From a virus (lineage: Duplodnaviria > Heunggongvirae > Uroviricota > Caudoviricetes): a stretch of DNA of 6,254 nt. Below are positions 5,700 to 6,254 of the stretch, in pieces. Position 1 is the stretch's first letter; every line of letters starts with the position of its first letter. Below the pieces are notes generated by a model that saw only the letters and a program-made list of their open reading frames with translations, made no database searches and was not told the DNA's origin. The DNA lies in IMG/VR virus record IMGVR_UViG_2623620503_000006; one strand, 5' to 3'. The position numbers were made by a program, and so were the translations under genes.

Positions 5700-5840
5700 C
5701 AAATAGAGTTATTATTAATTACATTTACAGTAGGAATGATGTACATCATTGAAACACCATTCAGTCATATACCGACAGCATTCGGTGTTGCACTTCATAA
5801 CTCTGCGACTACGGTTATAAAAGCATTGGCTACTTTTGCC

Positions 5841-5884
5841 ACCGGCAAATCTTCAATGGATTTCCCCTGCCGGTTTTTTATTTT
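5841..5884 (+). terminator. intrinsic-terminator-like hairpin followed by a T-tract
   Basis: ccggca (5842-5847) pairs with tgccgg (5868-5873), and aatc (5848-5851) pairs with gatt (5859-5862), giving an interrupted stem of about 10 bp. It is followed by TTTTTTATTTT (5874-5884). Confidence 0.4.
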
Positions 5885-5885
5885 C

Positions 5886-5951
5886 ATCGATGCATAACAT
5901 TGCTTTTACATCAATAGCAGCTATTGTCAGTAGTATGTTGTATCGATGCAT
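5886..5951. repeat. 10-bp direct repeat atcgatgcat (5886-5895 and 5942-5951) flanking a 7-bp-arm palindrome
   Basis: Two exact copies of atcgatgcat lie 56 bp apart. Between them, caatagc-a-gctattg (5922-5936) is a perfect 7-bp-arm palindrome. Confidence 0.4.
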
Positions 5952-5974
5952 GGGTGGTATTGGCGATCTTCGCC

Positions 5975-6012
5975 GACCGGTTCTGTGTAGCTCCCTATGA
6001 CCGGTTTTTTTA
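5975..6012 (+). terminator. weak terminator-like hairpin followed by a T-tract
   Basis: gaccggt (5975-5981) pairs with accggt (6000-6005), a 6-7 bp stem with an 18-nt loop, followed by TTTTTTTATTT. The large loop makes this a weak candidate. Confidence 0.25.
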
Positions 6013-6021
6013 TTTCTAAGA

Positions 6022-6058
6022 TTATAGAAGTCCTTCACTGTATGAAGGACTTCTATAA
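6022..6058. repeat. perfect 16-bp inverted repeat with a 5-nt spacer
   Basis: 6022-6037 ttatagaagtccttca is the exact reverse complement of 6043-6058 tgaaggacttctataa, with spacer ctgta. No U-tract follows on either strand, so it is not a canonical intrinsic terminator. Confidence 0.6.
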
Positions 6059-6254
6059 CGCTTCTTACTTTGTAATTTTCGCACCTTCCGGTAATTCCAT
6101 AGGTTAAAAAAACCTCATAATCTCTGACAATTTGATCCTACCCACGTAATATGGACACAGGCCTAAGCGAGGTTCTGGTTTTCAAATTGTTCCGGACTGA
6201 GGCCGCCACACCAACTGTGCCGCCGCCACCGATTGTAATCACATTCGATATAAT

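Follow-up and report, generated by a model that had tools for sequence, protein, structure and literature searches.

What is held in the AT-rich DNA that lies distal to the cohesive end site (cos) of a lambda-like prophage, and on which strand do its structures act? The question is raised by a stretch of 6,254 nucleotides (nt) from IMG/VR virus record IMGVR_UViG_2623620503_000006 (hereafter the window), which, judged from its sequence, is a defective prophage of the lambda-like kind, read here against its late operon. A preliminary description, made from the letters of this DNA, had set positions 5700-6125 apart as a non-coding stretch; the GC content of the AT-rich DNA is 38.3%, compared with 54.5% in positions 1-5480 of the window. 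The best explanation that we can offer is that positions 5700-6132 form a non-coding junction that joins cos to the lysis/accessory end of the late operon. We consider it somewhat more probable than not that this junction is a convergent one, in which the plus-strand intrinsic terminators (hp1 and hp2) of two moron-like non-coding units (A and B, respectively) are set against a stem-loop of the late mRNA, represented by the palindrome P (Table 1). The stretch is a fairly ordinary phage feature, composed of known kinds of element, i.e. intrinsic terminators, moron-like insertions and an intercistronic stem-loop, although the sequence families to which these belong appear to be absent from Rfam and we found no description of them in the literature searched.

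Both hairpins with adjoining T-tracts are present on the plus strand as first described, and folding energies and terminator scores bear them out. The hp1 stem (ACCGGCAAATC/GATTT(CCCCT)GCCGGT, 5841-5874, followed by TTTTTTATTTT) folds as RNA with a free energy (dG) of -11 to -13.5 kcal/mol (z = -2.4 for the -13.5 fold) and has a d-score of +8 to +13 on the plus strand, calculated with the d'Aubenton-Carafa formula; the corresponding energies for hp2 are -9.5 to -11.4 kcal/mol (z = -2.3 for the -11.4 fold). By their d-scores, hp1 and hp2 therefore qualify as plus-strand terminators, and P qualifies on neither strand. One or more strong plus-strand terminators arose in just 0.3% of 300 dinucleotide shuffles of the region. 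A strict built-in terminator scan, which admitted loops of 3-8 nt and disallowed bulges, called neither hp1 nor hp2, since their stems hold a bulge or a long loop.

The conservation of these structures was followed through about 250 Escherichia coli genomes and over 200 phage contigs of IMG/VR (individual loci are given L numbers), in which hp1 variants were gathered by means of an anchor placed outside hp1 itself. Within the main hp1 family the stems are invariant and the apical loop changes (TTCAATG, TTCCATG, TTTACTG). Some 45 nt at hp1, with the CCCC bulge and the preceding CUUUUG, are invariant in this family, while about 35 of 80 sites vary in the unit A body. In a more distant subfamily (L194, L234 and L236) the terminator is kept and the body has diverged much further; this subfamily also carries one A.A mismatch. 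The pairing pattern is strand-specific: one stem pair is T-A in the window, T.G in L234 and C-G in L194, a series consistent only on the plus strand, and the G.U wobble in hp1 of L005 would be a C.A mismatch if read on the opposite strand. Each of the 15 hp2 variants examined retains a stem and a T-tract, with loops of differing length. The preliminary description had these terminators facing against late transcription, and the stem wobbles, which are legal on the plus strand only, agree with it. On the minus strand an A-tract precedes the stem and no U-tract follows it; hp1 and hp2 would therefore be invisible to late transcription.

Comparison of relatives also revealed how the two units are distributed. 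Unit A, about 150 nt long and ending in hp1, forms a block (approximately 5737-5884) that lies at the same distance from the start of the small terminase gene in phages of three small-terminase types. In the minimal form of the locus, cosQ is followed by about 42 nt and then P (L159, which has a lambda-type cos, L176, L200 and L208). In another form A and hp1 are found between cosQ and P (L006, L007, L009 and phages cdtI and phi458), and in the form seen in the window, L002, L004, L005 and L008, A with hp1 is followed by B with hp2 and then by P. Unit B is an insertion of about 131 bp whose edges are the direct repeat CCGGTTTTTTATTT(T)C. It holds a long imperfect inverted repeat (ATCGATGCATAACAT / ATGTTGTATCGAT), and its final 58 nt or so are a diverged copy of the end of unit A; the flanks of hp2 are likewise paralogous to those of hp1 (ATTGGC..CTT.GCC and CCGGTTTTTTATTTC). 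B was never seen without A, all 79 copies being accompanied by it. A perfect 14-bp palindrome (ATGATGTACATCAT, 5736-5749) opens unit A in the window; relatives retain just its outer ATGA/TCAT arms and differ in the centre.

Of 5426 complete E. coli genomes, 246 (approximately 4.5%) have a match to the region, and many of these came from cattle or other livestock; an hp1 22-mer was matched in at least 120 IMG/VR contigs. Among 185,579 species, each represented by one genome, neither the cosQ-to-unit-A pattern nor the hp1 21-mer had any match, and the A/hp1 block therefore seems to be limited to a subset of E. coli phages.

DNA that is present in some phages and absent from others, between conserved segments (here cosQ and P), recalls the moron concept developed for lambdoid phages (Juhala et al. 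2000, as cited in PMC4104026). Like morons, A and B are oriented against the late operon and closed by an intrinsic terminator of their own, and the slot that they fill holds small open reading frames (ORFs) in lambda and in Salmonella Fels-1; unlike morons, they encode no protein, there being no selected ORF in either unit, and no promoter was recognised. Well-known morons are bor and lom of lambda, as well as ylcI, ybcW and ybcV, which lie beside cos in DLP12. At the right end of lambda (L133, lambda 45900-48502, reverse complement approximately 35-400) an unannotated leftward small ORF, presumably akin to ylcI, adjoins cosQ; in DLP12 the annotated ylcI lies between nohD and ybcW. Just past cosQ lambda also carries the palindrome GATAATGATTATCATC, which presumably resembles the Fur-box consensus. 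In Fels-1 (L238, 1992-2183, plus strand) an unannotated ORF of 60 amino acids (aa; MKKQNIIPYMEKIMHERGK...) occupies the interval from cos to P and ends against P. Given these plus-strand small ORFs in lambda and Fels-1, the cosQ-to-P interval looks like a moron slot with an anti-late orientation.

The absence of a convincing ORF, claimed from the outset, held up under closer analysis. A plus-strand ORF of 53 aa, occasionally annotated in relatives, shows no codon periodicity, as the variable sites within its first 26 codons are spread 10/13/12 over codon positions 1/2/3 (27 unique homologous sequences), and 2-nt indels put its C-terminal part into three alternative frames in different phages. 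Neither Pfam nor PHROG returned anything for this ORF or for four other small ORFs. A search of 5.8 billion proteins with the 53-aa sequence yielded 10 E. coli 'hypothetical' entries and no broader family. Protein coding was ruled out on the grounds of the missing periodicity, the alternative C-terminal frames and the lack of a Pfam or PHROG match.

In the mechanism that we propose, A (approximately 5725-5884) and B (approximately 5885-6012) would be moron-like non-coding pieces filling the cosQ-to-P slot, and hp1 and hp2 would halt plus-strand transcripts, antisense to late transcription, before these enter the lysis genes and the DUF1398-bor moron. The transcripts so ended would most likely be short non-coding RNAs originating from A and B themselves. 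Sequence features of small RNAs (sRNAs) of the Hfq type are found here, namely a non-coding body, CUUUUG before the hp1 stem and U6AU4 after it. Several prophage-encoded RNAs of pathogenic E. coli have been described, including the anti-sRNAs AsxR and AgvB (Tree et al., PMC4104026) and the Pas sRNAs (PMC8550237; Zhu et al., bioRxiv 10.64898/2026.05.13.724894), and the prophage anti-sRNAs and PasA follow a pattern of conserved 3' end and variable 5' end (PMC4104026; bioRxiv 10.64898/2026.05.13.724894). The subfamily of L194, L234 and L236, with its retained terminator and strongly diverged body, resembles this pattern. The invariant 3' module of about 45 nt, the variable 5' bodies and the presence or absence of whole units fit these published families. 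Like their members, A and B are short, non-coding, carried by lambdoid prophages, convergent with late genes and ended by a stem-loop with a U-tract; unlike them, they lie beside cos, have no sequence or Rfam match and are known from sequence alone. AsxR, AgvB and PasA-D were rejected as identities for A or B, since they are located near Q, PR' or the holin genes or inside structural operons, and the PasB probe sequence is unrelated. It is thus possible that A and B are sRNA units, and the preliminary proposal of a small or antisense RNA unit, or else a barrier to read-in transcription, would remain the best reading of a region in which each hairpin closes a non-coding unit that is present in some phages and absent from others.

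Several observations weigh against this proposal. No sigma-70-like promoter was found on the plus strand of 5400-6123 at a consensus match of at least 9/12, and no conserved -10/-35 pair could be recognised by eye in five aligned upstream variants, although a promoter for another sigma factor or RNA processing could still supply the 5' end. A search of the whole window for known non-coding RNA families by covariance models, a check suggested in the preliminary description, gave no family in 5700-6133 (Rfam 15, whose models include AsxR, AgvB, STnc100 and IsrG; cmscan, E<=1), and literal sequence searches with hp1 and P found no match in the literature searched. The consensus RNA fold of the unit A body is without covariation support on either strand. 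With a d-score of +1 to +7, calculated as above, hp2 is only marginal as a terminator, and its most frequent variant folds in a different register. The conservation of hp1 could reflect recombination-driven homogenisation beside P, not function, and the elements in the window may be relics, the head and tail genes having been lost and the neighbouring moron cut by the insertion sequence IS3.

Such observations would suit a different account, which we judge rather unlikely: A and B would yield no functional RNA and would be decayed moron remnants, while the terminators and P would merely insulate the lysis region and the DUF1398-bor moron, or be inert. Besides the missing promoters, the unit A body devoid of structural covariation and the defective state of the prophage, it would accommodate the broken plus-strand ORF, with its semi-conserved N-terminus and its tail in three frames, and the barrier-like arrangement of tandem terminators with no promoter between them. 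However, the invariance of some 45 nt at hp1 exceeds the needs of a bare terminator, the block is kept in the functional phages cdtI and phi458, and no obvious source of antisense transcription that would require a barrier was identified.

The palindrome P is, as the preliminary description stated, a perfect inverted repeat with 16 of 16 positions paired and without a U-tract. Its fold has a dG of -22 kcal/mol (z = -8.1), and none of 200 shuffles folds as well. It is not an intrinsic terminator, as it has no U-tract on either strand and d-scores of -49 (plus) and -24 (minus); its variants in relatives likewise have no U-tract. The earlier preference was for a site bound by a dimeric protein or a DNA cruciform, with which the perfect repeat, the short spacer, the missing U-tract and, in the lineage of the window, a position about 170 bp upstream of the DUF1398 gene would agree. 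We regard an operator or cruciform as very improbable in view of how P varies among its relatives. Across 19 variants the helix is paired in 89% of cells, compared with 30-59% in slid controls, and 4 of the 16 pairs are changed on both sides (e.g. T-A to C-G twice between the window and L005, G-C to T-A in L078, A-T to C-G in the majority form). The loop ranges from 3 to 9 nt, so that half-site spacing is not kept, and in many variants the mismatches would be G.U wobbles in RNA. P is also found in phages that have no DUF1398-bor, and at about 34 other junctions it is wedged between a stop codon and the ribosome-binding site that follows; these junctions share no neighbouring regulator or promoter.

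The genetic contexts of P point in the same direction. A scan of IMG/VR with the majority 3' arm placed 179 copies, 117 of them beside hp1 and 62 in the roughly 34 unrelated contexts. In 63 of 88 unique contexts a late-strand (minus) ORF of at least 50 aa has its end within 60 nt of P on the right-hand side, the distance usually being 2-11 nt, and where hp1 is missing the next minus-strand gene often begins 12-17 nt to its left. The genes that follow P, as read from translated N-termini, encode a small terminase, an HNH endonuclease or a ParB-like protein; Fels-1 and two further contexts instead have a plus-strand ORF that ends against P. In phages phiP27 (Stx2e), cdtI and phi458 and in Salmonella Fels-1, the lysis genes are always on one side of P and the HNH or terminase genes on the other. 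The preliminary description had staked its claim on the conservation of the palindrome in related prophages, and P is indeed conserved there. It occurs in 359 of 5426 E. coli genomes (approximately 6.6%), with a median of 1 and a maximum of 7 copies per carrier, numbers that are consistent with one copy per prophage. P was rejected as a dispersed, REP-like repeat, being present once per locus (207 loci), and it was also rejected as an element tied to cos, since it precedes HNH genes and packaging modules of other gene content as well.

As regards the strand, the minus-strand RNA of P is the more stable one in 23 of 27 variants, by a mean of 3 kcal/mol, and in several variants A.C mismatches of the plus strand are G.U pairs of the minus strand. 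The count of G.U and A.C cells is balanced, at about 18 versus 17, with no preference for either strand, and the lean towards the minus strand comes from the energies alone, in 27 variants that are phylogenetically related; the strand evidence therefore leans one way and is no proof. Taken together, the covariation, the range of loop lengths, the positions after stop codons and the minus-strand stability point to a stem-loop of the late mRNA, on the strand opposite to that of the terminators, and we accordingly favour P as a probable RNA-type stem-loop of the late operon over an operator or cruciform.

That the block might be a cis-acting packaging element, an extension of cosQ aiding terminase to stop and cut at the downstream cos, we hold to be most improbable: the block does abut cosQ and accompanies cos across three small-terminase types, but A and B are wholly missing in phages with the same cosQ (L159 even has a lambda-like cos), lambda and the window have only cosQ in common, P fronts quite different packaging modules without an adjacent cosQ-like sequence (SK6988), and compensatory changes indicate single-strand folding, for which the packaging of duplex DNA has no need.

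Within the convergent junction that we favour, P would most likely act in the late polycistronic mRNA, as either a protective hairpin at a 3' end or a processing hairpin that divides the lysis-side from the packaging-side mRNA segments. As a conserved block of about 40 bp it could also serve as a joint for homologous recombination between modules, a plausible by-product. In E. coli SK6988 (L147, 2940-3000) the late strand carries, after P and just before a ParB/Srx gene, a hairpin that is long and GC-rich, and with it TTTTTTATT; the packaging module of this phage begins with the ParB/Srx gene and GREB1-related genes, followed by the small terminase gene. The late-strand terminator predicted after P in SK6988 implies that the junction can also carry a terminator in the late direction.

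Intercistronic stem-loops that protect polycistronic mRNAs or direct their processing are familiar from the REP hairpins of malEFG, the RNase III sites between T7 genes and lambda sib. Like these, P is strong, free of a U-tract and located between cistrons after a stop codon, and it shows compensatory changes. Unlike REP hairpins, it is found once per phage at one module boundary and is not dispersed, and its stem of 16 bp falls short of the usual length of RNase III substrates. The modular theory of phages is said to be due to Susskind and Botstein, and boundary or linker sequences at the junctions of lambdoid modules were reportedly described by Clark et al. in 2001. P resembles such linkers in that, together with about 45 bp to its right, it is common to phages with unrelated flanking genes, that DNA being read in two frames. 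Unlike a pure recombination linker, P has compensatory substitutions, which show selection for pairing. In the window the minus-strand frames of the linker (..MELPEGAKITK* and ..ITGRCENYK..) match the C-termini of proteins from L002 and L006, respectively. The DNA to the right of P was also observed to code for the C-termini of unrelated late genes in two frames (...ITGRRGRY* and ...MKLPEGAVVTE*).

A bolder proposal, which we think unlikely, is that A and B represent a new cos-proximal family of prophage sRNAs with a shared terminator/Hfq module, and that P is an undescribed RNA element of the lysis-packaging boundary, which sets the processing or stability of late transcripts and hence the balance between lysis and packaging. 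If A and B are expressed, the prophage sRNAs by which E. coli regulation is rewired would gain a new sequence family as well as a new location, beside cos. P would be a defined and testable RNA structure at a module boundary of mosaic phages, bearing both on the fate of late mRNA and on recombination. If neither is functional, the region would be a documented case of how non-coding junctions of lambdoid phages gather terminators and insertions. The prophage in the window is dead and the practical importance is therefore low.

Table 1. Features of the window and of the AT-rich junction distal to cos (coordinates refer to the window unless a locus is named)
Feature	Position	Strand	Remarks
Tail-fibre gene	41-2371	minus	
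lom	2430-3050	minus	
ORF fusing large terminase N-terminus and J C-terminus	3112-4962	minus	
Small terminase gene, Nu1-type	4931-5479	minus	
cosN, 12-nt cohesive end	5656-5667	minus	reverse complement GGGCGGCAGCGG; flanks match lambda ends
cosQ with approximately 25-30 nt of cos-proximal sequence	5683-5722		core AGGACCC at 5690-5696; common to all architectures, including Salmonella Fels-1
Non-coding unit A, body	5725-5840	plus	present in some relatives, absent from others
53-aa ORF	5736-5897	plus	occasionally annotated in relatives
hp1, predicted intrinsic terminator of unit A	5841-5884	plus	12-bp bulged stem, then TTTTTTATTTT; CUUUUG before the stem
Non-coding unit B, body	5885-5974	plus	part of the insertion of approximately 131 bp
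hp2, predicted intrinsic terminator of unit B	5975-6012	plus	ACCGGT...ACCGGT, 5975/6-6005/6, then T7
Hairpin P	6022-6058	minus	arms 6022-6037 and 6043-6058, 16/16 complementary, 5-nt loop
Late-gene linker remnant	6059-6105	minus	in relatives, C-terminal coding part of the last late gene ahead of cos; gene-less here
Linker as coding sequence in relatives	L006 3698-3725; L002 6588-6620		
Upstream region (beginning) of the DUF1398 (ybcV-like)-bor moron	6106-6132	plus	cut by IS3; uninterrupted in relatives L004 and L005
End of IS3 copy	6133-6254	minus	IS3 of 1258 bp in the identical locus L001 (strain EC11, L001 9654-10911)

The stretch does lie distal to cos, as had been proposed: cosN and cosQ are both found to its left, position 5668 of the window is aligned with the final base of the genome record of phage cdtI, and by sequence and position match to lambda the AT-rich stretch is not itself cosN, cosQ or cosB. 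Lambda has CACCGGAAAGGACCCGTA in common with the window, and the homology of its right end goes no further than cosQ; DLP12 of K-12 shares only part of cos with the window. Within cosB (5504-5630) we observed long imperfect inverted repeats (GGTCCGACATGGAAGTGC...), one of 25 nt with 88% and one of 28 nt with 71% complementarity, which probably represent the R sites, to which the small terminase of this phage would bind.

On the left, a single minus-strand ORF joins the N-terminus of the large terminase to the C-terminal portion of the tail protein J, and all head genes and most tail genes have therefore been deleted. Positions 1-4755 are 99.9% identical to the J-lom-stf segment of lambda in K-12 lambda lysogens. 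Among the 5426 E. coli genomes this deletion architecture was matched only by strain VG48B2, in a prophage beside potB. A weak Rfam match to isrG (1672-1785, plus strand; 16.5 bits compared with a gathering score of 100, E = 0.31) falls in the alanine-rich repeat part of the tail-fibre gene and is almost certainly due to chance.

On the right, the non-coding character claimed up to position 6125 stands, while the IS3 copy from 6133 onwards and the DUF1398-bor moron beyond it had been missed. Native phage DNA runs to 6132 and, as IS3 begins at 6133, the native part of the stretch is the DNA between cosQ and the DUF1398-bor moron. The insertion of IS3 was accompanied by a 3-bp target duplication (ATT); L004 and L005, in which the locus is uninterrupted, place the insertion point about 95 bp upstream of this plus-strand moron. 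The junction of phage and IS3 sequences forms a promoter-like hybrid, CTGACA-17 nt-TAATAT (6124-6152), which is directed into IS3.

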